Positions 34,228 through 44,055 of a DNA stretch of 64,000 bases are shown here, one piece after another (positions within the stretch are counted from its first letter, which is position 1; each line of letters opens with the position of its first letter). The notes under the pieces are model-generated. The model was not told where the DNA came from. It saw only the letters and a list, made by a program, of their open reading frames with translations, and searched no databases. Source of the DNA: a virus; the IMG/VR virus record IMGVR_UViG_3300042261_000588, positions 64,001-128,000 of that record, one strand, 5' to 3'. The position numbers were made by a program, and so were the translations under genes.

Positions 34228-35081
34228 AAAAGAGAACACTGGGAGATTTTGAAGTGGCTCATGGACAGCCGAAGATCGCTCGTATGGAACGCCAGCTTGA
34301 AGTGGAGCGGGCAAAGGTTTCTGCATTGTCTGATGTTCAAGGGAAAGTTCGCAAGGTTGTTTCAAAGGGCAATACATTCGTTTTCGGTTTGTTCGGAGAC
34401 ACTCAGACTGGAAGTATATATTCAGCTCCAGAGTGTTGGAAGGCGTGGGCAGAACATGCCAAGGCTCGTGGCGCAACAGCTCTCTATCATACCGGCGATG
34501 TTTTGGATGGGCATCGTATTTATAAGGGGCAGGAATTTGAACTGCGTGATGTGGGCATGGAGAGACAGTTGGAGCGTCTTGTAAAGGATGCGCCAGATGT
34601 GGGTATCCCGGTGGAGTTTATCGTAGGAAATCACGATTTGTCCCTCAAACATCTCGCCGGTGTAAACATTGGGAAGGCTATCGAAGAGAGGATGTTGAAA
34701 GCCGGGCAGAAGTGGAAATTCCTCGGAGAGGAAACAGGCTATGTGGAAGTGATGACTCCCATAGGTAAGATATTCAGGCTGAGATTGTTACATCCTGGCG
34801 GTGGTAGCAGTTACGCAATTTCCTATAGACTTCAGAAGATCATTGAGTCGTTAGAAGGCGGAACAAAACCCGATATGCTGGCAGTCGGTCACTATCACAA
34901 GGCTGAGATGTTGCCGAATTATCGGAACGTATGTGGAATTCAGACTGGGGCATTCCAGTGGCAATCTCCATTCATGGCAAGAATGGGCTTGGCGGCTCAT
35001 GTCGGTGGATGGATCGTTGAGGTAACAACGGGTGCGGACTTAATCTCCATTCGTGGAGAGTTTGTCGCATTCTTTAGATAA
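34224..35081 (+). CDS. calcineurin-like metallophosphoesterase
   Basis: GDTQTGS, HTGDVLDG, GNHD, HPGGG, GHYH. Confidence 0.85.
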   Translation: MKKRTLGDFEVAHGQPKIARMERQLEVERAKVSALSDVQGKVRKVVSKGNTFVFGLFGDTQTGSIYSAPECWKAWAEHAKARGATALYHTGDVLDGHRIYKGQEFELRDVGMERQLERLVKDAPDVGIPVEFIVGNHDLSLKHLAGVNIGKAIEERMLKAGQKWKFLGEETGYVEVMTPIGKIFRLRLLHPGGGSSYAISYRLQKIIESLEGGTKPDMLAVGHYHKAEMLPNYRNVCGIQTGAFQWQSPFMARMGLAAHVGGWIVEVTTGADLISIRGEFVAFFR

Positions 35082-35101
35082 AGGAAGAAAGGAAGAAAAG
35101 A

Positions 35102-35485
35102 ATGAAAAAGAGAGAAGTTGCATCAGAGTTGGTTAAGATCGCTAAGAGTTTGTTGGCTCTTCCGATGACGTTTAATTCACCATCGACGGAAACAACTCGG
35201 TGGGCTAAGAAGACGTTGATGCTTGCACTGAATGTGGATGCAAGTTGGAAACAGATATACGAATCGTTTATGACAGTCCAAGAAGGTGGTAGTAATAAGT
35301 TCCACTACTTTGGAGTCTTCAAGTCTCGCACGGGGGGGTGTGTTGGCGGTAACGCCTATGGGCGAATCGGATATAATCCTAGAGCCATCGAGGTAGCTCG
35401 TGGTAGCGAGAGCTCGGTTATGTCGAGTGTTCGTGAGAAGGCCAGCGACAAACAGAGAAAGGGTTATCGAGTAACCGAAGTGTAA
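35102..35485 (+). CDS. WGR-domain-like protein with shared tag
   Basis: MKKREVASELVKIAKSLLA; SNKFHY..YGRIG..K.RKGY. Confidence 0.7.
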   Translation: MKKREVASELVKIAKSLLALPMTFNSPSTETTRWAKKTLMLALNVDASWKQIYESFMTVQEGGSNKFHYFGVFKSRTGGCVGGNAYGRIGYNPRAIEVARGSESSVMSSVREKASDKQRKGYRVTEV

Positions 35486-35710
35486 TAGACTTCATGTCGG
35501 CGGAAGAAGGGTAAAGCCTATGGCTGATGCAAAACATGGCTTATGACGCCAAGAAAAAGGAAGTCAGCCGCCGCATGAGGTTACTGGAAGATTAGCTTGA
35601 AAAGCATGATCGTCGGCAGAAGAATCGTCCGAATGAAACAGAGTTTGTCAAAGACTTGGATGATGTTGTGAAAAGTCTGGACGAACTTATGAGAGAGTTG
35701 GGGGTGATTT

Positions 35711-36028
35711 ATGCCTTATAATCCTGATAATCCTCCAGATGTGATACGTCGTAAGTTGCCGAAGGAAAAACAGAGGAAGTGGTGTGAGGTTTTCAACTCG
35801 GTATTTGATAAGACTAAAAGCGAGGAAAAAGCATTTCAAACAGCTTGGAGTGTAGTTAAGAAATCCTCTTGTAACTGCGACGTAGATAAGGGTTGTGGCG
35901 GCAACTGTGGCTGTTTTGGACAGCTTATTGGGCCGTCTGAGAGTGAAGGTTCTATAGCAGATGCTACTAGGACTCAAGACATCCTTAATGCAAAAGAGTT
36001 GTTGGTTCTAGCTAGAAGTCTGATTTAG
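35711..36028 (+). CDS. ChaB-like protein with C-terminal tag
   Basis: MPY..PPDV..LP..QRKWCEVFNS..AFQTAWSVVKK; ends AKELLVLARSLI. Confidence 0.7.
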   Translation: MPYNPDNPPDVIRRKLPKEKQRKWCEVFNSVFDKTKSEEKAFQTAWSVVKKSSCNCDVDKGCGGNCGCFGQLIGPSESEGSIADATRTQDILNAKELLVLARSLI

Positions 36029-36036
36029 GGAGAAAA

Positions 36037-36234
36037 ATGAGAGATGAGAATGGAATTTATATTGGCAACCAACATTGTGGTCATTGGAGGGGTGCTGAAA
36101 AGATCGAGGAGAGGACATGTTGCGGAGGAAGGAAGTCAAAGTTCGCCTTTGTTCGATGTGTTGCAAACGGGATCGTTCTTGCTGATGTGAAGTGTATGAG
36201 TCAGTGTGAGGATGCAATACCTAAAGGGGAATAA
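36037..36234 (+). CDS. small Cys-rich protein
   Basis: six Cys in 65 aa; SD GGGAG. Confidence 0.5.
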   Translation: MRDENGIYIGNQHCGHWRGAEKIEERTCCGGRKSKFAFVRCVANGIVLADVKCMSQCEDAIPKGE

Positions 36235-36235
36235 T

Positions 36236-37090
36236 ATGAAGAAAAGGATCGTAACTGCTTTTGCTTTAGTTTTGGCAGGATGTGTGACAATACCAAATGG
36301 AGGTAATATTCCCATGAATGAGACAGACAACATGATTGGAGCATCAAACAGAGTTGCAGTTTGTATTGGGTTGACTTCTGTTAATCCTGGTGCCTATCAG
36401 GGATGGGCAGGCGATTGTCCTGGATGTGATATTGATGCAAAGGGTCTTTATAGACTCTTTTTGAATGAAGGATTTTCTGCTCATCTCATACTTAATTCGG
36501 CTGCCACATGGGAGTATGTTCGTAATACAATTTTGGATTCATCCAAATTTCTCAAGGCGGGCGATTTATTGGTCGTTTCGATTTCTGGTCATGGAGGTCA
36601 AATACCGGACGACGATGGTGATGAACCAAGTGGTCAGGATTCCACCCTCTGCTTACGTGATGGACAGGTGCGTGATGATGACTTCCTAAAGATGATTCAA
36701 AAGCTTCCCAATGGCATACGGCTCGTGCTTATAAATGATCAATGTCATAGTGAGGGAAATTTCAAGGCGTTGTGGCGTCAGGTGAAGCGTGGTGTCACTC
36801 TGGGATCATCGGGTAAGAAGGTAGCTATTCCTTTGATTCGTGGAGTGGGTACAAATCAAGTTCAACTCATTCAGTTTGCAGGATGTCGTGAAGCTAATTA
36901 TTCATACGGATCGTCAAAAGGTGGGACGTGGACTCAGAATCTTCTATCAGCATACAAGCCAGAACTAACATGGAGACAGTGGTTTGACAATGCTAATAAG
37001 TTGATGCCTAGACAACAGGTTCCAGTCTGGACTCTCTATCCTGAAGGGGGCGTATCAGAAGAATTTATCAACGGATCGGTGCTTCGGTAG
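36236..37090 (+). CDS. metacaspase (peptidase C14) with lipoprotein-like signal
   Basis: LAGC lipobox; SGHGGQ; DQCHS. Confidence 0.85.
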   Translation: MKKRIVTAFALVLAGCVTIPNGGNIPMNETDNMIGASNRVAVCIGLTSVNPGAYQGWAGDCPGCDIDAKGLYRLFLNEGFSAHLILNSAATWEYVRNTILDSSKFLKAGDLLVVSISGHGGQIPDDDGDEPSGQDSTLCLRDGQVRDDDFLKMIQKLPNGIRLVLINDQCHSEGNFKALWRQVKRGVTLGSSGKKVAIPLIRGVGTNQVQLIQFAGCREANYSYGSSKGGTWTQNLLSAYKPELTWRQWFDNANKLMPRQQVPVWTLYPEGGVSEEFINGSVLR

Positions 37091-37137
37091 TATAATGAGG
37101 CGAGGTAATGTGCCTCGGCAATATGAGGAGGGTGTTT

Positions 37138-37428
37138 ATGGAGAAGGTAGATCGTTTATTTCTTGAGAAGGACTGTCCGCATTGTGGAGTGATTCGTGCG
37201 GAAGTTGATATGGTTGCTGTCACTCAGGATTCTTTCCGGGGGCAAGCAGATCAAAAGTTTTTCGTTTTCTCTGCGCTCTCAAATGAGGCGTCTATAGACC
37301 TCCTAGAGAAATATGGACTGGCTGGCAAAAATATGCCGGTTCTTGTCACATATGAAGGAGAGGTTCGGACTGATACGAACCAAATTCTCGGCTGGCTGCG
37401 TGTGAACAAGATGTCTACTCAGGGTTGA
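37138..37428 (+). CDS. thioredoxin/glutaredoxin-fold protein
   Basis: CPHC and MPVLV. Confidence 0.6.
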   Translation: MEKVDRLFLEKDCPHCGVIRAEVDMVAVTQDSFRGQADQKFFVFSALSNEASIDLLEKYGLAGKNMPVLVTYEGEVRTDTNQILGWLRVNKMSTQG

Positions 37429-37446
37429 CAACAGGTTAATTCCTGA

Positions 37447-38055
37447 ATGATCGGCACTCTTCACATCGTTTTGGCAATGAAGCCACTTGAAGGCAATTTC
37501 GTGCAAAATGCCTTCAAGCACGGTGTTGCTGGTTTGAACATCGACGGTTCTAGAATTTCTGGTCCAAAGGGTGATGGCGTATGGGGTACTAGTAACAAGA
37601 CGATCAATCGGGACAGGAAGTTCAATGCGTCGCCTACTATGGGGGAATACCGGAGTGAGGCGCATGCAGGGGGCAGATGGCCCTCCAATGTTATTCTTGG
37701 TCATCTAGAGGGTTGTCGATGCGTTGGTAACAAGAAAGTAGCCGGAGAGAAGTTCAGAGGATTGAAGGGAACGAAGGCTCGGTCTTGGAAGAATCAAAGC
37801 GTTGACGGCATCAATCGAGTTGGTCATGCTGATGCAGATGGCAAGGAGACTGTAGAAGCATGGGACTGTCAAGAAGGATGTCCTGCGAAGGCTATGGACG
37901 AACAAAGTGGAGTGCGAAAGACAACTTGGGTGTCAAAGTCGCACAAGAACAATCGTAAGGATGGTTTTCTTGGAGCGGTGGGGCATCCAGGAGAACAGGG
38001 ATTTAATGATTCTGGTGGTGCTTCACGATTTTTTAAGCAGGTGAAGGAAAGATGA
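37447..38055 (+). CDS. stand-alone DNA methyltransferase middle segment, copy 1
   Basis: IVLAMKP, GLNIDGSRI, GRWPSNV, GGASRFF; no DPPY or SAM motif. Confidence 0.7.
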   Translation: MIGTLHIVLAMKPLEGNFVQNAFKHGVAGLNIDGSRISGPKGDGVWGTSNKTINRDRKFNASPTMGEYRSEAHAGGRWPSNVILGHLEGCRCVGNKKVAGEKFRGLKGTKARSWKNQSVDGINRVGHADADGKETVEAWDCQEGCPAKAMDEQSGVRKTTWVSKSHKNNRKDGFLGAVGHPGEQGFNDSGGASRFFKQVKER

Positions 38056-40568
38056 ATAAAAACACAAGAGATCAGATCAGGCAGTGGATTGCACAAAAGC
38101 AAGTTTCGGTAGTTGAGTTACCAACTTCTGTTGAAGTTCAAACTCAACCAACTCAACCAACTCAACCAACTCAACCAACGGAATTGGTGGAGCCTCGATC
38201 AGTCATTCGTGATGAAATCATTCTTGGAAACTGCATCAAAGAGTTGAAAAGGATTCCTAGCAATACTTTCACTGCAGTCATTTGCGATCCGCCGTATGGA
38301 TTGGAGTTCATGGGCAAGGAGTTCGATTCACCGTGGAAGCAGTTGTCAGGATGGCAAAACGGTGGTGGATTCTCGAAGCCGGGAATTGGGGATCGCAAGA
38401 CGGAATGGCCTTCGTTTAGTTCGACATCACTCTATGGAGGAGCTAATCCAACCTGTGGGACTTGTGGAGGCAGGGCAAGGGGAGAGAAAAAGTGTTCTTG
38501 CGAGACTCCGAATTGGAAGCCCATTGGGAAGCGAAAGAATCCTGAGAATGAGGGATTGCAGGATGATGTAACCAGCATGGGCCTTGCTAAACAGATGAAG
38601 ATGTTTCAGGAGTGGAACGAGGCTTGGGCAAAGGAAGTTTTGCGGGTGCTTAAGCCGGGTGGACATCTCCTGTCATTCGGTGGGTGCTATGATGAACACA
38701 CGGAAGTTTTAACCAAGAGAGGCTGGGTGCGATTTCCAGATGTAAGGGAGGATGATTTATTCGCATCTCTGATTCCCGAAACGCATATCGTGGAATGGCT
38801 CCCGGCCATCGAACGAGTGTGTTTGAGGCATACTGGCCCGATGTATCACTACAAGACCAATCTGATCGATCTCGTAGTGACGCCGAACCATAAGATGTTT
38901 GTGTCCACGGTTGGGGATAAGGAGCATTTCAGACTTGTAAGGGCAGACGAACATGGCAAGGCGATCCGAATGACGAAGACGAGTAGTGGGCAACTGGGAA
39001 GTGTGGCGGGTGGAGATTTCATATTGCCAGCAACGACGATTTCGGTTGGACATGGACACATTCGAGAAGTCCCCGAAAAACGTATTCCGATGAGTGCTTG
39101 GTTGCCGTTCTTTGGAATGTGGATTGCTGAAGGAAGTGCGTCTGTTGTCAAAGTCAAAACGGGTTATGGGTACAACGTGTCTATTGCTCATTTTGATCTT
39201 GATAATCTTCGAGAAATCAAGAGGTTGCTCGCTCCGTATTTCAATGCGATCATCGACGAGAAGCGTGGGAAGATGCGGATCAACGACAAGCAACTGACTG
39301 AGTATCTTCGTCAATTCGGAAAGGCGTGGGAGAAGTACATTCCAGAGTGGTTGAAGGGGTTGGATCAGGACGGGATACGGACATTTCTTGACTGGTATGC
39401 GAGGGTGGATGGAGACGACGATGGTCGAATCTATACTTGTTCTCATCATCTGAGGGATGGGGTGCAAGAGATTGCGATGTATGCCGGATGGGCGGCAGAT
39501 TGGACTGTTGCTTGTCCGAAAAAGATGCCGCCAAAGATTCGTGATGGAGAGATTCACTCTCGTCGTCCGCATTACATAATTCGATTACTAAAGGCACAGA
39601 TAAGGCCATCTTTGTATACTGGCGGGAAAGGCGGCAGGACCGAGATTTCAGAAGAGGAATGGGACGGCGGAAATGTGTACTGTGTGGAACTTATCAGAAA
39701 TCATACACTCTATGTAAGAAGGAATGGGAAGGCGGTGTGGTGTGGTAACACTCGAACCTATCATCGGATGGTTTGTGGGATCGAGGATGCTGGTTTTCAG
39801 ATTCGGGATAAGATAGATGAGTATTGCGAGCTTGACGGCTATCTGGCTTGGGTTCATGGACAAGGCTTTCCAAAAAGTTTGAATATCGGAAAGCAGATGG
39901 AGAAAATGGAGCGTGGGTGTTCACAGGGAAGACCCGATCCAGAGAGTCCTATGCATGGGAAGTGGAAAGGTGGAAAGTCTTTCGGTGGTGGGCAAGCGAT
40001 GTGGGCAGAAGGAGATGTTGTCAAATCAGAGGATAAGGAATTGACAGGTGATGCAAAATTGTGGGAAGGATACGGGACCAGTTTAAAGCCGGCGCATGAG
40101 CCTATTGCCGTTTTTGGTAAGGATTCAGAGCCTTTGAATCCAGACGTTTCTTTCAAGTATGAAGCCAAAGCTTCTGGAAAGGAACGCAATGCGGGTTGTG
40201 AGAATCTATTCTGGCTGAAAGGGGATGACGGCAAGGATGTCTTAATCTCGAAAGAAGACTATGACAGGATGGCAGTCGAGAATGAGTCTCGGAAGGATGA
40301 AGAAGGATTTCAGAAACATAACATTTCACAGGGCAACAATCATCCGACTGTAAAGCCATTGGACTTGATGAGATATTTAGTCCGTATGGCCAAAATGCCT
40401 GGCGACAATCTGATTCTCGATCCTTTTATGGGCAGTGGGACTCTCGGAGTTGCCTGTGTTCTGGAAGGATGTAACTTCGTGGGTATTGATATGGACGAGA
40501 ACTATGTCAAGATAGCGCAGGCACGAGTGGACTATGCCAAGAAACATGGGGAAGACGGATATAAGTGA
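38052..40568 (+). CDS. N4/N6 DNA methyltransferase (beta class) with intein
   Basis: DPPYG, GFPKS, LKPAHEP, HPTVKP, LDPFMGSGT. Confidence 0.9.
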   Translation: MNKNTRDQIRQWIAQKQVSVVELPTSVEVQTQPTQPTQPTQPTELVEPRSVIRDEIILGNCIKELKRIPSNTFTAVICDPPYGLEFMGKEFDSPWKQLSGWQNGGGFSKPGIGDRKTEWPSFSSTSLYGGANPTCGTCGGRARGEKKCSCETPNWKPIGKRKNPENEGLQDDVTSMGLAKQMKMFQEWNEAWAKEVLRVLKPGGHLLSFGGCYDEHTEVLTKRGWVRFPDVREDDLFASLIPETHIVEWLPAIERVCLRHTGPMYHYKTNLIDLVVTPNHKMFVSTVGDKEHFRLVRADEHGKAIRMTKTSSGQLGSVAGGDFILPATTISVGHGHIREVPEKRIPMSAWLPFFGMWIAEGSASVVKVKTGYGYNVSIAHFDLDNLREIKRLLAPYFNAIIDEKRGKMRINDKQLTEYLRQFGKAWEKYIPEWLKGLDQDGIRTFLDWYARVDGDDDGRIYTCSHHLRDGVQEIAMYAGWAADWTVACPKKMPPKIRDGEIHSRRPHYIIRLLKAQIRPSLYTGGKGGRTEISEEEWDGGNVYCVELIRNHTLYVRRNGKAVWCGNTRTYHRMVCGIEDAGFQIRDKIDEYCELDGYLAWVHGQGFPKSLNIGKQMEKMERGCSQGRPDPESPMHGKWKGGKSFGGGQAMWAEGDVVKSEDKELTGDAKLWEGYGTSLKPAHEPIAVFGKDSEPLNPDVSFKYEAKASGKERNAGCENLFWLKGDDGKDVLISKEDYDRMAVENESRKDEEGFQKHNISQGNNHPTVKPLDLMRYLVRMAKMPGDNLILDPFMGSGTLGVACVLEGCNFVGIDMDENYVKIAQARVDYAKKHGEDGYK
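38141..38179 (+). repeat. 9-bp tandem repeat (AACTCAACC x4) encoding (TQP)n
   Basis: seen directly. Confidence 0.85.
38685..39749 (+). mobile_element. intein (355 aa) with LAGLIDADG-type endonuclease
   Basis: starts CYDEHTEVLT, VTPNH, FFGMWIAEGS and WYARVDG blocks, ends VWCGN followed by Thr. Confidence 0.9.
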
Positions 40569-41206
40569 CCGGAACTCTTCATATTGTTCTTGCAATGAAA
40601 CCGATAGAAGGCAATTTTGTACAAAATGCCTTCAAGCATGGTGTTGCAGGTTTGAATATCGACGGGGCTAGGATCGGGTTTGCCAGTGAAAAGGATTTCA
40701 AGTCAGCGAAGTTCGGGACGCAGACAGACATAAGAGGCGGAGGGTTTGGCTCCAAGAGACCTTCTGATGGAAACGTATTGGCTAAAGGAGTCGAGGCTGA
40801 CGCCAAGGGTAGATGGCCGTCAAATGTCTTGCTCGGTCATCTTTCCGGCTGCAAGAAGATTGGAGTAAAGAAGGTCAGTGGGACGGCCACTTCTAATGGC
40901 GACGCAGAAATTGGCAAAGAGAGTAATGGCGTGGTAAAGTCATTGCGACGTGGTAAGTTCATAAATAGGACTATTGATGGTAAAGAAACGGTAGATGCGT
41001 GGGAGTGTCAAGAAGGCTGTCCTATTAAGGCCATGGATAAACAGAGTGGGAACAAGTGTGGGGCTGCCGCACCAGTTAAAGGGACAGAAGAGAGTGAGAC
41101 TGGACAGAATGGGATTTATGGCAGATATAAGAGAGTCGCCAGTTCTTTCCATGATGATGGTGTCGGTGGTGCTTCACGATTTTTCAAACAGGTAAAGGGA
41201 GATTGA
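40565..41206 (+). CDS. stand-alone DNA methyltransferase middle segment, copy 2
   Basis: paralog of 37447..38055 with the same conserved blocks. Confidence 0.7.
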   Translation: MTGTLHIVLAMKPIEGNFVQNAFKHGVAGLNIDGARIGFASEKDFKSAKFGTQTDIRGGGFGSKRPSDGNVLAKGVEADAKGRWPSNVLLGHLSGCKKIGVKKVSGTATSNGDAEIGKESNGVVKSLRRGKFINRTIDGKETVDAWECQEGCPIKAMDKQSGNKCGAAAPVKGTEESETGQNGIYGRYKRVASSFHDDGVGGASRFFKQVKGD

Positions 41207-41208
41207 CT

Positions 41209-41613
41209 ATGAATGAATGTAAGAAGATCGCTGTTGACTTTGATGGGGTTCTGGTAAAGTGTTTGCCATCGGATGTTGGTTACGTTCCTGATCGGTTCGG
41301 AGAGCCTATCCTCGTGATGATTGAACGAGTCAGGGGCTGGCTGTCAGAGGGTAAGGATGTTGTGATCTTTACAGCTCGTGTTCATCCAGCGAATCCAGAA
41401 GAAGCTGAGATTGCTAGGTTGGCTATTCAGAGGTTTTGCCTCAACAACTTCGGGATTGTCATGGAAGTCACTTGCATGAAGTCTCCAAAGATGGCTCGGT
41501 TTTATGATGATCTGGCTGTGACGGTGGAGCAAGATACTGGCAGAATCCTGACTCCGGGATTCGATGAAGAAAGAGAAGCTCCTGACGCACTTGGATCGTT
41601 GCTTTCGGAGTAG
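41209..41613 (+). CDS. HAD-superfamily phosphatase-like protein
   Basis: IAVDFDGVL, IFTAR, TCMK..YDD. Confidence 0.75.
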   Translation: MNECKKIAVDFDGVLVKCLPSDVGYVPDRFGEPILVMIERVRGWLSEGKDVVIFTARVHPANPEEAEIARLAIQRFCLNNFGIVMEVTCMKSPKMARFYDDLAVTVEQDTGRILTPGFDEEREAPDALGSLLSE

Positions 41614-41621
41614 AATGATCC

Positions 41622-42452
41622 ATGAATAATGAATTAAAATCTCCGGTTACGTTTCAGGGTGCCAAAGTCCGGTTGGCAAGTCAAATCGTTGATGTTCTAT
41701 GGGCGGGTAAAGATACGAAGTATTTCGATCTCTGTTGTGGCGGAGGTTCGATCTCGTTAGAGTTGTTTCGTCGAGGAGTCACTCCTGAGAATATCACCAT
41801 GATTGATGCCGGACCTTGGGGCAACTTTTGGCAGGCTATAGCCAATGGAAGTTTTGATCTGAGCGTCTTGAAGATGTTGTTGGATATGGTTCCGAATGAT
41901 AAGGGCAAGATTAGGGATCATATCGAGCGGTTGTCGAATACCAATGCCAGTGTAATGACTCCTTATGTCTATCTTGTGCTTCAAGCCAGCAGTTTTGGAG
42001 GCAAGGCGATATGGCGTGAAGGGGACAAGTGGAAGAATACGACGTTTAGGGGCTACTGGGAGCCCAAGGATGGCTGTAACAGGCAGTCCCATGTAAACCC
42101 TATGATGCCTATGCCGGACGAGCTGTATCGCCGTGTAGAGGCTATTGTGAGAAGCGAGCTTTATGGCAGGGTCAAAGGACGGCAGGATGTATTACCCGGA
42201 TGCATAGAAGGTTTGGGACATGGTGTGGCATACATTGATCCTCCTTACAAGGGTGCTACTGGTTATGGACGGTTTTTCGATGTGATTTCGGCGGCGAAGA
42301 AGTTTGGTGGTGTCTGCTACGTTACAGAAGGAGTTCCACTGACGGAAGAAGCTTACAAGCTTTCGGAACACAGACAAAAGGGTGGAGTTAGTGGGAATCG
42401 AGAAAGGAAACAGGAAGAATGGATAAGCATATTCAGAAACAAGGCACTGTAA
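41622..42452 (+). CDS. D12-class DNA adenine methyltransferase-like protein
   Basis: FQGAK, DLCCGGGS, YIDPPY. Confidence 0.75.
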   Translation: MNNELKSPVTFQGAKVRLASQIVDVLWAGKDTKYFDLCCGGGSISLELFRRGVTPENITMIDAGPWGNFWQAIANGSFDLSVLKMLLDMVPNDKGKIRDHIERLSNTNASVMTPYVYLVLQASSFGGKAIWREGDKWKNTTFRGYWEPKDGCNRQSHVNPMMPMPDELYRRVEAIVRSELYGRVKGRQDVLPGCIEGLGHGVAYIDPPYKGATGYGRFFDVISAAKKFGGVCYVTEGVPLTEEAYKLSEHRQKGGVSGNRERKQEEWISIFRNKAL

Positions 42453-43786
42453 CAGATAATGAAATCGTTTCGGTGTTTCCCGTCGAGGCTCGTAAACGGT
42501 TATTGCCGACGTTAATTTCCAGATTGGTCATGGGAGCTAATGTAATTAGTCCTTGGCATGGGAGGCAAGACGTTGTTGTTATCGAGGATGTGTATGGATT
42601 GACGAAATTAAGCGTTCAGGACTTCGCCATAGCCAAGGAAGTTGCGGAGAGGATTACCAAGGAACTTGGATTACAAATGATTGTGCCGTCACATCAAGTA
42701 TTGGTTATTCGAGACAGGGCGCAGGAGATTGTCGCTTCGATGACGGATTGTCGTGCGGGCAAGAAGGGCATTATCATGCTCAAGGATCAAGGTGGTTGTG
42801 GATATTGGAGGATGTCGCTTCCTGCAAAATACATTAATCGGGATGGGATATACATTGATGTTACCGGAGGGACATTGGGATTAGATGGTTTGTTGGAGTA
42901 TGATACGATCTTTGTTCAGCGTGTATGCAATTGGGATTACTTACTTGTTTTGGAGAGATTGAAGAAAGCTGGGAAAAGGATCGTTTACGATGTTGATGAT
43001 GATATTTTTGCAATTCCGAGTGACAATCCTGCCTCAAAGGGAATGGGACGATCAGAGCAGATGGCGGCGGTTGAGTGCATGAAGATTGCTGATGTTGTTA
43101 CAACTACGACAAGTATATTGCAGGAACGATTTACTTCATTGCTTGGTCGTGCTCCGGTTGTAGTGCCTAATGCTATTGACCCAGATGACGGTTGGAATCC
43201 AACTCCGATGACGGGAAGTCCGGATGGCAAGAAGAGAATTTTCTGGCAGGGAAGCAACACACATGACGAAGACTGGAATGAGTGTTTTGATGCAGTAGAT
43301 CGAGTCATGAAAAAGAGGTCGGATGTTAGAGTCGTCATCATGGGGTTCTTGCCCACTCTAGTGAAGGAGAGTCTCGGAGAGCCACATTGGAAGGATCGGG
43401 TTGAATACATTGGGTCGATGGCTCCAGAGGCATATTTCAGACTTATTAAACATGTTCGAGGGGATGTGGGACTGGCACCACTTCGGCATGAACACTTTAA
43501 TCTTGGCAAATCGTCCATAAAGTGGATCGAGAACAGTGTCATCGGTATGCCAACAGTTGCATCGGATGTTGCGCCTTATTCAGATGTGATAGAACATGGA
43601 GTCGATGGATTCATTTGTTCGGATACGGATGAGTGGGAAGACGCCATTGATGTGTGTCTTGATAATGATAGTGTGAGACGGCAGGTGGTTGAAAATGCTC
43701 GGGTAAAGGTGCGTCGGGAGTTCAACATCAAGACAGTTTCTGAGACATGGCGGAGAGTGTTGGTTGGAGATGATCGAAATGGGTGA
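42419..43786 (+). CDS. GT-B (family 4-like) glycosyltransferase; start uncertain
   Basis: GCGYWRM..P, YDVDDD, VVPNAID, WQGSNTH, KS.IKWIE..G.P.VAS. Confidence 0.82.
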   Translation: MDKHIQKQGTVTDNEIVSVFPVEARKRLLPTLISRLVMGANVISPWHGRQDVVVIEDVYGLTKLSVQDFAIAKEVAERITKELGLQMIVPSHQVLVIRDRAQEIVASMTDCRAGKKGIIMLKDQGGCGYWRMSLPAKYINRDGIYIDVTGGTLGLDGLLEYDTIFVQRVCNWDYLLVLERLKKAGKRIVYDVDDDIFAIPSDNPASKGMGRSEQMAAVECMKIADVVTTTTSILQERFTSLLGRAPVVVPNAIDPDDGWNPTPMTGSPDGKKRIFWQGSNTHDEDWNECFDAVDRVMKKRSDVRVVIMGFLPTLVKESLGEPHWKDRVEYIGSMAPEAYFRLIKHVRGDVGLAPLRHEHFNLGKSSIKWIENSVIGMPTVASDVAPYSDVIEHGVDGFICSDTDEWEDAIDVCLDNDSVRRQVVENARVKVRREFNIKTVSETWRRVLVGDDRNG

Positions 43787-44055
43787 TTAAATAGTGGATA
43801 GGAACATTTCAGTCTGTATTGAGAACAAATGTCTGGAGTGAAATTCAAGTGATCTGGTTGTTCCGAGTGATTGCCCGTATGAGATATTCCACCCTTTGGA
43901 ATTAGATACGAGCAGAATGCAGATTAAGAAATGGATTGATATGCAAATACTGAAGTGGAGGGATAAGAACTTGGGAAAGATTGATGGCTCCTAGTTGGGT
44001 GGTTCATAGTAACATTTCCTTTATATTTATCCTATCTATGAAAGGGAGAATAATC

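Follow-up and report, generated by a model that had tools for sequence, protein, structure and literature searches.

A putative class beta DNA methyltransferase of an uncultured lake phage whose middle segment is encoded twice, by separate flanking genes

The locus and its genes

The locus described here consists of three overlapping genes on a 64,000-nucleotide stretch of viral DNA (positions 64,001 to 128,000 of IMG/VR record IMGVR_UViG_3300042261_000588; this whole stretch is called the window). The record is 143,854 bp long (CheckV completeness, 67%) and comes from a large uncultured lake phage; nearly all genes of the window lie on the + strand. The central gene encodes a methyltransferase core that lacks its middle segment. 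The two flanking genes, called modules A and B, each encode a version of that segment (Table 1). A preliminary description, made from the letters of the window, had presented three open reading frames (ORFs) overlapping by 4 nt, with the segment missing from the core carried by both neighbours. The ORFs, their strand and their overlaps are as it described, and alignment with single-chain relatives agrees on the missing segment. Both gene junctions are spanned by letter-identical contigs from two runs (two studies), which are possibly the source DNA of the record and thus not independent. The three-gene layout is not an assembly artefact.

Table 1. Features of the methyltransferase locus, in order of position in the window (a)
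Feature	Positions	Strand	Remarks
Module A gene	37447-38055	+	ORF, 202 aa; putative free-standing middle module (TRD region)
Module A, cassette 1 (aa 37-75)	37555-37671	+	Low column conservation; 7/45 identical to B
Module A, His/Cys subdomain (His86, Cys90, Cys141, Cys145)	37702-37881	+	Invariant in 41/41 and 96/96 aligned modules
Module A, cassette 2 (aa 101-128)	37747-37830	+	Variable; 4/29 identical to B
Module A, cassette 3 (aa 156-187)	37912-38007	+	2/35 identical to B; 1/34 to the L166 orthologue
Overlap of A stop and core ATG (4 nt)	38052-38055	+	Read from the letters
Core gene	38052-40568	+	ORF, 838 aa; putative beta-class N6_N4 methyltransferase without middle module, interrupted by a putative intein
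Catalytic motif IV, aspartate form (core aa 79-82)	38286-38297	+	From alignment; invariant in 64 core homologues
Putative intein with LAGLIDADG homing-endonuclease domain (core aa 212-566)	38685-39749	+	355 residues
Junction: first boundary motif (aa 678-685) and stub (aa 686-708)	40083-40175	+	From alignment; kept in L163 and L166
SAM-binding motif I (core aa ~789-797)	40416-40442	+	Counted by hand from the C-terminus
Overlap of core stop and B GTG start (4 nt)	40565-40568	+	Read from the letters
Module B gene	40565-41206	+	ORF, 213 aa; GTG start; variable cassettes unlike those of A
Module B, cassette 1 (aa 37-81)	40673-40807	+	Unalignable to the third module of L163
Module B, cassette 2 (aa 107-133)	40883-40963	+	26/27 identical to the third module of L163
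Module B, cassette 3 (aa 163-197)	41051-41155	+	Unalignable to the third module of L163
a Coordinates of sub-features were derived by hand from residue numbers; the position of motif I is approximate. aa, amino acids; SAM, S-adenosylmethionine; TRD, target recognition domain. L163 and L166: related loci (see below).

The methyltransferase core

The core matches Pfam family PF01555 (N6_N4_Mtase) over aa 674-823 with 96.9 bits (cut-off, 26.7) and, more weakly, CcrM-type models of NCBIfam. The aspartate form of its motif IV points, as a rule of thumb, to an N6-adenine target; the core is probably a DNA amino-methyltransferase with that target. It was aligned with single-chain relatives, namely a 515-aa ORF of a 485-kb uncultured phage (LR745208) and the methylase of Salinibacter phage M1EM-1. 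Where these enzymes hold a middle segment of about 190 residues, the core has about 15, and modules A and B are exactly the span between the boundary motifs named in the preliminary description, which had called for an alignment with full-length homologues. The recognition region is therefore absent from the core polypeptide and is represented by the modules encoded by A and B instead. The core keeps, between motif VIII and the first boundary motif, a linker rich in beta structure, which differs between close relatives. Motif IV (aa 79-82) lies N-terminal of motif I (aa ~792-796), which is the class beta order: IV, TRD, I (available part of PMC7544214).

Two related loci are used throughout: L163, the closest relative (module A ~95% identical), and L166, whose module A orthologue is 68% identical and whose 422-aa core has no intein. 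The AlphaFold2 (AF2) model of the L166 core alone has a mean predicted confidence (pLDDT) of 75.1. It matches CcrM (6pbd, E 2.5e-10) and the M.BceJIV, TTHA0409, MboIIA, RsrI and PvuII methylases. Its pLDDT falls below 50 at 174-192 and 261-287, and the part equivalent to the stub is of low confidence.

The core is 838 aa long because a putative 355-residue intein lies inside it. The ends of this insertion carry the canonical residues (Cys212 first, Asn566 last, Thr567 next). The penultimate residue 565 is Gly, not His; some active inteins lack the penultimate His. The insertion is missing at exactly the same point in the L166 core, in the L163 core and in one contig of run X4, in which 39750 is preceded by the letters that close the N-terminal part of the core. 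Related phages in runs X4 and X5 (two other lake samples) have an intein-less core with another linker: 38665 is joined to 40143 with 283 other letters (one contig per run). Profile matches are weak: TIGR01445 at E 0.041 (14.9 bits, cut-off 24.5) and LAGLIDADG_3 at E 0.059, below its cut-off; searched against PDB sequences, the insertion gave chance matches only (E >=0.8). The Atlas model of residues 212-566 resembles insertions in NrdD, ThyX, portal, dCTP deaminase, terminase and methylase clusters with TM 0.82-0.91, both sides of the comparison being predicted models; LAGLIDADG_3 is found in 45-94% of the members of these clusters. End residues, precise absence in relatives and predicted fold together suggest an intein with a homing endonuclease, which would splice out of the core and leave 483 aa. 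If so, selfish elements also target the core gene, which should be borne in mind before its 838-aa product is taken for an unusual enzyme. The preliminary description did not include the intein.

Two further observations concern the core. Near the N-terminus, a linker of three-residue repeats is encoded by about four tandem copies of a 9-nt unit (38141-38185). Relatives in X4 and X5 carry insertions at this point, where the Logan contigs of runs X1 and X2 end. The repeat stays in frame and so is not a phase switch. At 38454-38501, between motif IV and the next conserved block, there is an extra Cys-rich loop (Cys135, 138, 148, 150), which may be a small zinc ribbon and which is lacking from the L166 and L163 cores.

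The modules

Modules A and B are 48% identical (103/216, E 9e-50). Identity is concentrated in four blocks (33/36, 18/25, 21/29 and 12/16 identical), separated by three variable regions, called cassettes 1 to 3, with few shared residues (Table 1); these figures bear out the conserved blocks and differing variable regions of the preliminary description. No Pfam family was found in A or B at E<=0.01, and the module profile had 0 matches among PDB sequences at E<=1. Neither module has the Methylase_S domains and coiled-coil spacers of HsdS. Module A matches positions 2-82 of the profile of PHROG 3008, 'DNA methyltransferase', a family that joins the front of a module to a cofactor half.

Across 96 aligned modules the invariant residues (A numbering) are Arg36, Arg77, Asn81, His86, Cys90, Cys141, Cys145, Gly190 and Arg194. 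The His/Cys quartet is probably a zinc site, as its composition suggests; short-form relatives lack this subdomain. A and B have in common a candidate docking scaffold: a strand and a helix at the N-terminus, two short motifs that are invariant, and a strand at the C-terminus.

The cassettes vary separately from one another. Compared with its L166 orthologue, module A keeps cassettes 1 and 2, and cassette 3 is wholly different. In DNA comparison of module B with the third module of L163, the boundaries are sharp: flanks and centre are ~88-96% identical, and cassettes 1 and 3 are unalignable. At 60% identity, 45, 51 and 52 types of cassettes 1, 2 and 3, respectively, were distinguished, with 90 combinations among 96 modules. 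Of the 4560 module pairs, 131 have a similar cassette 3 with an unlike cassette 1 and 192 the reverse; 45 have only cassette 2 in common, 14 have cassettes 1 and 3 but not 2, and four have all three. The three cassettes assort independently. The mosaic boundaries point to cassette swapping by recombination. A diversity-generating (adenine-directed) mechanism is unlikely, since the exchanges involve segments as a whole.

In X4 and X5, one contig each joins an A-like part straight to a B-like part (within 37884-41171), skipping 3148 and 3151 nt. These joints are either mosaic modules in relatives or a deletion of the core by recombination between conserved blocks.

Selection and the wider module family

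Among 786 candidates, 610 were homologous to module A at E<=0.001; they are stand-alone and 111-354 aa long. Of the aligned homologues, 91/96 are complete as stand-alone proteins, from boundary strand to boundary strand. A and B follow the rules of this family: about 200 aa, extending from the first to the second boundary strand, with the four invariant His/Cys. The 30 Atlas clusters nearest to the module all consist of unnamed proteins; three of these clusters have lengths of 172-216 aa and are 91-100% viral. Megablast of 37000-42000 against phage records gave no match, and a scan of viral contigs with module A alone found no relative, whereas alignment-based scans did find relatives.

The ratio of nonsynonymous to synonymous substitution rates (dN/dS) between A and its 95%-identical L163 orthologue is 0.056 (dS 0.51). 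Over the first 36 codons, A and B differ by dN 0.05 and dS 1.23, 33/36 residues being identical and synonymous sites saturated. These values indicate that the N-termini have been kept alike by selection rather than by recent gene conversion. Within a locus, docking segments resemble each other more (0.74) than they do between loci (0.48), and none of 2000 label shuffles reached this. Both observations fit a docking site common to the modules. The split is taken to be a selected design, not decay. The natural split proposed in the preliminary description thus gains from three sides: the stand-alone family, purifying selection and a core-plus-modules layout that recurs in relatives.

A very improbable alternative, that the three genes are debris of rearranged or decaying methyltransferase genes without joint function, could appeal to the high degree of rearrangement of this gene family in phages and to the homing-endonuclease intein in the core, but all frames are intact, the starts are coupled, purifying selection is strong, the stand-alone homologues are mostly complete, and layout and synteny are kept down to 68% identity.

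Layouts in relatives

Stop-to-stop ORFs of 238 fetched loci were classed with the module profile and three core pieces (Table 2). Module-less single-ORF cores were found in 7/79 metagenome loci, and six of these seven have one to three counted stand-alone modules.

Table 2. Forms of the methyltransferase family in the surveyed loci (a)
Source of loci	n	Fused enzymes	Stand-alone modules	Two or more stand-alone modules
Viral	79	55	15	6
Genome	80	23	4	2
Metagenome	79	35	18	6
a Modules were counted only if >=100/213 profile positions were covered. Repeated loci (one phage or contig): L004/L005, L010/L013, L015/L016, L089/L091.

The layout of the window is met again in several loci. L166 has the order module, intein-less core, module, with caspase-domain, thioredoxin-like, HAD-like and glycosyltransferase genes as neighbours, as in the window. 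L173 has three modules and an 815-aa core. In L165, L172, L225 and L233, one counted stand-alone module lies beside a module-less core; further, shorter module ORFs lie beside the core in L165, L225 and L233. L163 has three modules around a core that is cut in two overlapping ORFs (L163 7307-8577; 214 and 210 aa) and in which the linker is replaced; that N-terminal half occurs a second time in P0202. One of the three L163 modules (L163 6603-7037; 144 aa) is of the short form and has no His/Cys subdomain. Counted per core, there are two modules in the window, three in L163, two in L166 and three in L173. Homologues of the L166 core without a module include all of the 18 best and 23 of the best 120; module-less cores look like a coherent group.

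Other loci of the same family are divided differently. L010 and L015 are three-way splits. In L004, L019 and L089, catalytic halves and modules form arrays that include a single cofactor half (in L004 5977-11425: three modules, four catalytic pieces, one cofactor piece). L034 5541-8406 holds six to seven stand-alone modules in tandem. In L009, L045 and L061, three to five module matches follow one another in a single chain, an example being the 994-aa chain with four tandem modules of L009 5326-8307. In the cultured actinophage Glaske of Mycobacterium (L002), gene 53 comprises the catalytic part and a module, and the adjacent gene 54 an 84-aa cofactor piece; both are annotated 'DNA methylase'. 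Given this annotation and the composition of PHROG 3008, split forms are already in databases, unremarked. The layout of the window thus appears as one variant within a wider set of multi-piece, multi-module enzymes of the same family, a set to which the preliminary description did not refer.

Predicted complex of core and module

The complex was predicted for the intein-less L166 core and its first module, each with its own alignment. The score was 0.61, that of the best of three controls 0.00. This mark is reached by 116/157 solved complexes and 2/215 mismatched pairs, which is a rough guide only, since own alignments were used here. The runs share >=78% of contacts, with a partner pLDDT of >=55. 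The confident interface comprises module residues 1-35, 77-85, 144-149 and 192-199, none of them in the variable cassettes, and core residues 139-203, 251-266 and 353-369. Interface positions of the module are more conserved than its other positions (0.68 vs 0.46; Mann-Whitney p 7e-8). Of the two stretches left unresolved in the core-alone model, 174-192 lies inside the module-touching stretch 165-203, and 261-287 overlaps and adjoins 251-266. The model supports binding between the L166 core and module. The preliminary description had proposed modelling the core with each module: the result is favourable for the L166 core with its first module, which passed the controls, and concerns this pair from a relative rather than the proteins of the window.

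Switches and signals

In 37401-41260 there is no homopolymer of >=7 A/T or >=6 G/C and no dinucleotide repeat. The search for invertible or recombinase-type repeats returned only the three conserved A/B blocks (80-83% identical) and short chance pairs, and no slippery sites were found at the locus. The suggestion, in the preliminary description, that the modules could switch specificity or partners thus finds no repeat tract, invertible repeat or slippery site to act through. Over 35000-44000, 9 promoter-like sites (11.7 expected) and 4 terminator-like sites (5.6 expected) were counted, i.e. no signal of either kind. As no switch, promoter or terminator signal was found, both modules are probably made together with the core.

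One candidate signal was rejected. The 5' part of A contains a palindrome (37486-37518; 14-nt arms, 13/14 paired), with a weaker counterpart in B (40607-40636). It is probably due to chance: the palindrome is not conserved (mean best pairing, 5.6 across 106 modules), and only that of the window reaches >=12.

Interpretation

Modules A and B are probably alternative recognition subunits that act in trans on one core. The locus would encode one multi-chain DNA amino-methyltransferase. After the intein has spliced out, the core would yield the catalytic and SAM-binding fold, and the missing TRD-region module would be supplied in trans by the translationally coupled A and B. Either module would complete the spliced core by docking through the common scaffold at the same site, which would adjoin the strands left unresolved in the core-alone model. 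The cassettes and the His/Cys subdomain would point away from the interface, face the DNA and read the target. One core would thus be given two different target sequences, and the phage DNA would be guarded against more host restriction systems. That the modules set the sequence specificity is suggested by their cassette-like variability and by their position in the TRD region as this is outlined in the available part of PMC7544214. Placing the recognition part in trans would be a small step for class beta.

Several points weigh against alternative recognition subunits. Across the family, the evidence for a recognition role consists of position and variability. The invariant Arg, Asn and Asp of the modules argue for a constant function besides the variable one, and the linker of the core could hold part or all of the specificity. 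A and B might be used together rather than alternatively. The likeness of docking segments within a locus could also stem from the shared ancestry of tandem copies. As for the models, module A alone (AF2, 41 sequences) has a pLDDT of 52.9, and the module stays at 55-57 in the complex, which was folded for the L166 pair, not the window's own; the alignment of the core includes single-chain relatives, so that the pose may reproduce the intramolecular packing of fused enzymes, and the first strand of the module is placed where the core's own stub strand is expected.

Joint use has been formulated as an explanation in its own right: A and B would both be needed in one holoenzyme, for instance a core dimer with one A and one B, which would read a bipartite or asymmetric site, or both strands, like the two domains of a Type I specificity subunit. 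The translational coupling of the three genes fits a fixed stoichiometry, relatives nearly always hold two or more modules per core, and class beta methyltransferases act as dimers with divided labour (available part of PMC7544214). Joint use is nevertheless unlikely. Module number changes from two to three among close relatives and rises to 6-7 in L034, which fits alternatives better; single-chain relatives, the fused forms of 55/79 viral loci, have one module per chain; and modules with the same docking scaffold (33/36 identical) should compete for one site per core monomer.

It is less probable still that the core is self-sufficient, being either non-specific or specific through its linker, and that A and B regulate it, bind DNA alone or act as decoys. 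The core retains every catalytic and cofactor motif as well as a hairpin-like stub that is conserved, the linker ahead of the first boundary motif differs from relative to relative, and a non-specific class beta phage enzyme, M.EcoGII, is known (available part of PMC7544214). However, the unresolved stretches of the core-alone model lie in or beside the region of module contact, and the conserved positions of the modules are those predicted to touch the core. The modules are moreover homologous to an internal part of single-chain enzymes, and in 6/7 loci with a module-less core they adjoin it.

That the pieces are joined into one chain after transcription, by ribosomal frameshifting or protein trans-splicing, has hardly any likelihood: the 4-nt overlaps do set neighbouring genes one frame apart and the core does contain an intein, but fusion at either overlap would give a permuted order instead of a module inserted at its proper place, 37401-41260 is free of homopolymer and dinucleotide tracts, the modules match no Pfam intein family, the intein query matched no module ORF, and the intein forms one uninterrupted insertion at a different place in the core.

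A bolder form of the reading as alternative recognition subunits is offered tentatively, as a possibility that is rather doubtful taken whole. The His/Cys subunit would donate a missing edge strand to the catalytic sheet, the core would be inactive until docking, and the three recombining cassettes would spell the target. If true, this would be a natural combinatorial code for DNA-sequence recognition, readable and reusable, with two to seven subunits per core and an environmental pool of >=45-52 cassette types per position.

Comparison with known systems

Methyltransferases are a main route by which phages escape host restriction. If A and B are alternative subunits, a single core fitted with interchangeable recognition subunits would deal with many host systems at low cost, and this would explain the heavy rearrangement of these genes in large phages. 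In the literature covered (subscription journals and REBASE lay outside the scope), no class beta methyltransferase with a free-standing recognition module was found described; the enzyme would apparently be the first of class beta found with its recognition module as a separate protein, if this reading is true.

Single-chain PF01555 enzymes of phages and prophages (M1EM-1, the LR745208 ORF) have the same motifs in the same order and a homologous module. In these enzymes the module lies within the chain, whereas here it is excised and encoded twice separately, the gap in the core being closed by the stub. L004, L010, L015 and L034 share the family, the module and coupled separate genes, and likewise belong to uncultured large phages. 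In these loci the catalytic half is likewise separate from the cofactor half, or else the cofactor half is fused to several modules; the window has one contiguous module-less core, with an intein, flanked by modules.

In Type I restriction-modification systems, as proposed here, the catalytic subunit takes its specificity from a separate polypeptide, and recognition parts are shuffled by recombination. HsdM is of class gamma. Fold and class are thus different, no R subunit is found here, and the modules lack Methylase_S. The Type I S subunit has two TRDs split by coiled coils, and the modules have three cassettes on a His/Cys scaffold. Type I methyltransferase genes are translationally coupled (available part of PMC3510504), a likeness to the locus of the window.

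Several exchangeable recognition modules on one catalytic frame, directed against several host restriction systems, are, as proposed here, a property of the multispecific C5-cytosine methyltransferases of Bacillus phages from the Trautner laboratory (references 86 and 87 in PMC7544214, as listed in its available part). Those enzymes carry their modules in tandem in one chain, in contrast to an amino-methyltransferase with free-standing modules. The locus of the window is thus a member neither of the Type I group nor of the multispecific C5 enzymes. Enzymes assembled from separate chains include the two-polypeptide C5 methyltransferases M.AquI and M.EcoHK31I; fragment complementation is known for C5 enzymes, and some split points need a short overlap between fragments (available part of PMC3404938). 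In the present case both boundary strands are found in the core and in the module. M.AquI and M.EcoHK31I represent a simple bisection with one specificity, whereas here a middle domain is excised and would be supplied in several alternative versions.

Modules that share one or two cassettes are natural chimeras, which would be of use for mapping which part reads which bases. The family also has value for annotation: it is large and unnamed, with 610 stand-alone homologues and no Pfam family detected in A or B.

Neighbouring genes

Upstream of module A lie genes for a caspase-domain (Peptidase_C14) protein with a lipoprotein-like N-terminus (36206-37090) and for a small thioredoxin-like protein (37108-37428); synteny of both with the methylase locus extends to L163 and L166. 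The gene after B (41203-41613) encodes a HAD-like protein with a weak match to PHROG 1238; of the starts TTG 41203 and ATG 41209, the second is the more likely and corresponds to that of L163. Two genes downstream of B, 41622-42452 encodes a D12-class (Dam-like) methyltransferase. The region near the end of the record (~141.7-142.9 kb; L245 743-1989) encodes a class beta enzyme that is small and self-contained, and also a protein of 184 aa in which an NPPY-type motif occurs. The phage genome is rich in methylation genes.

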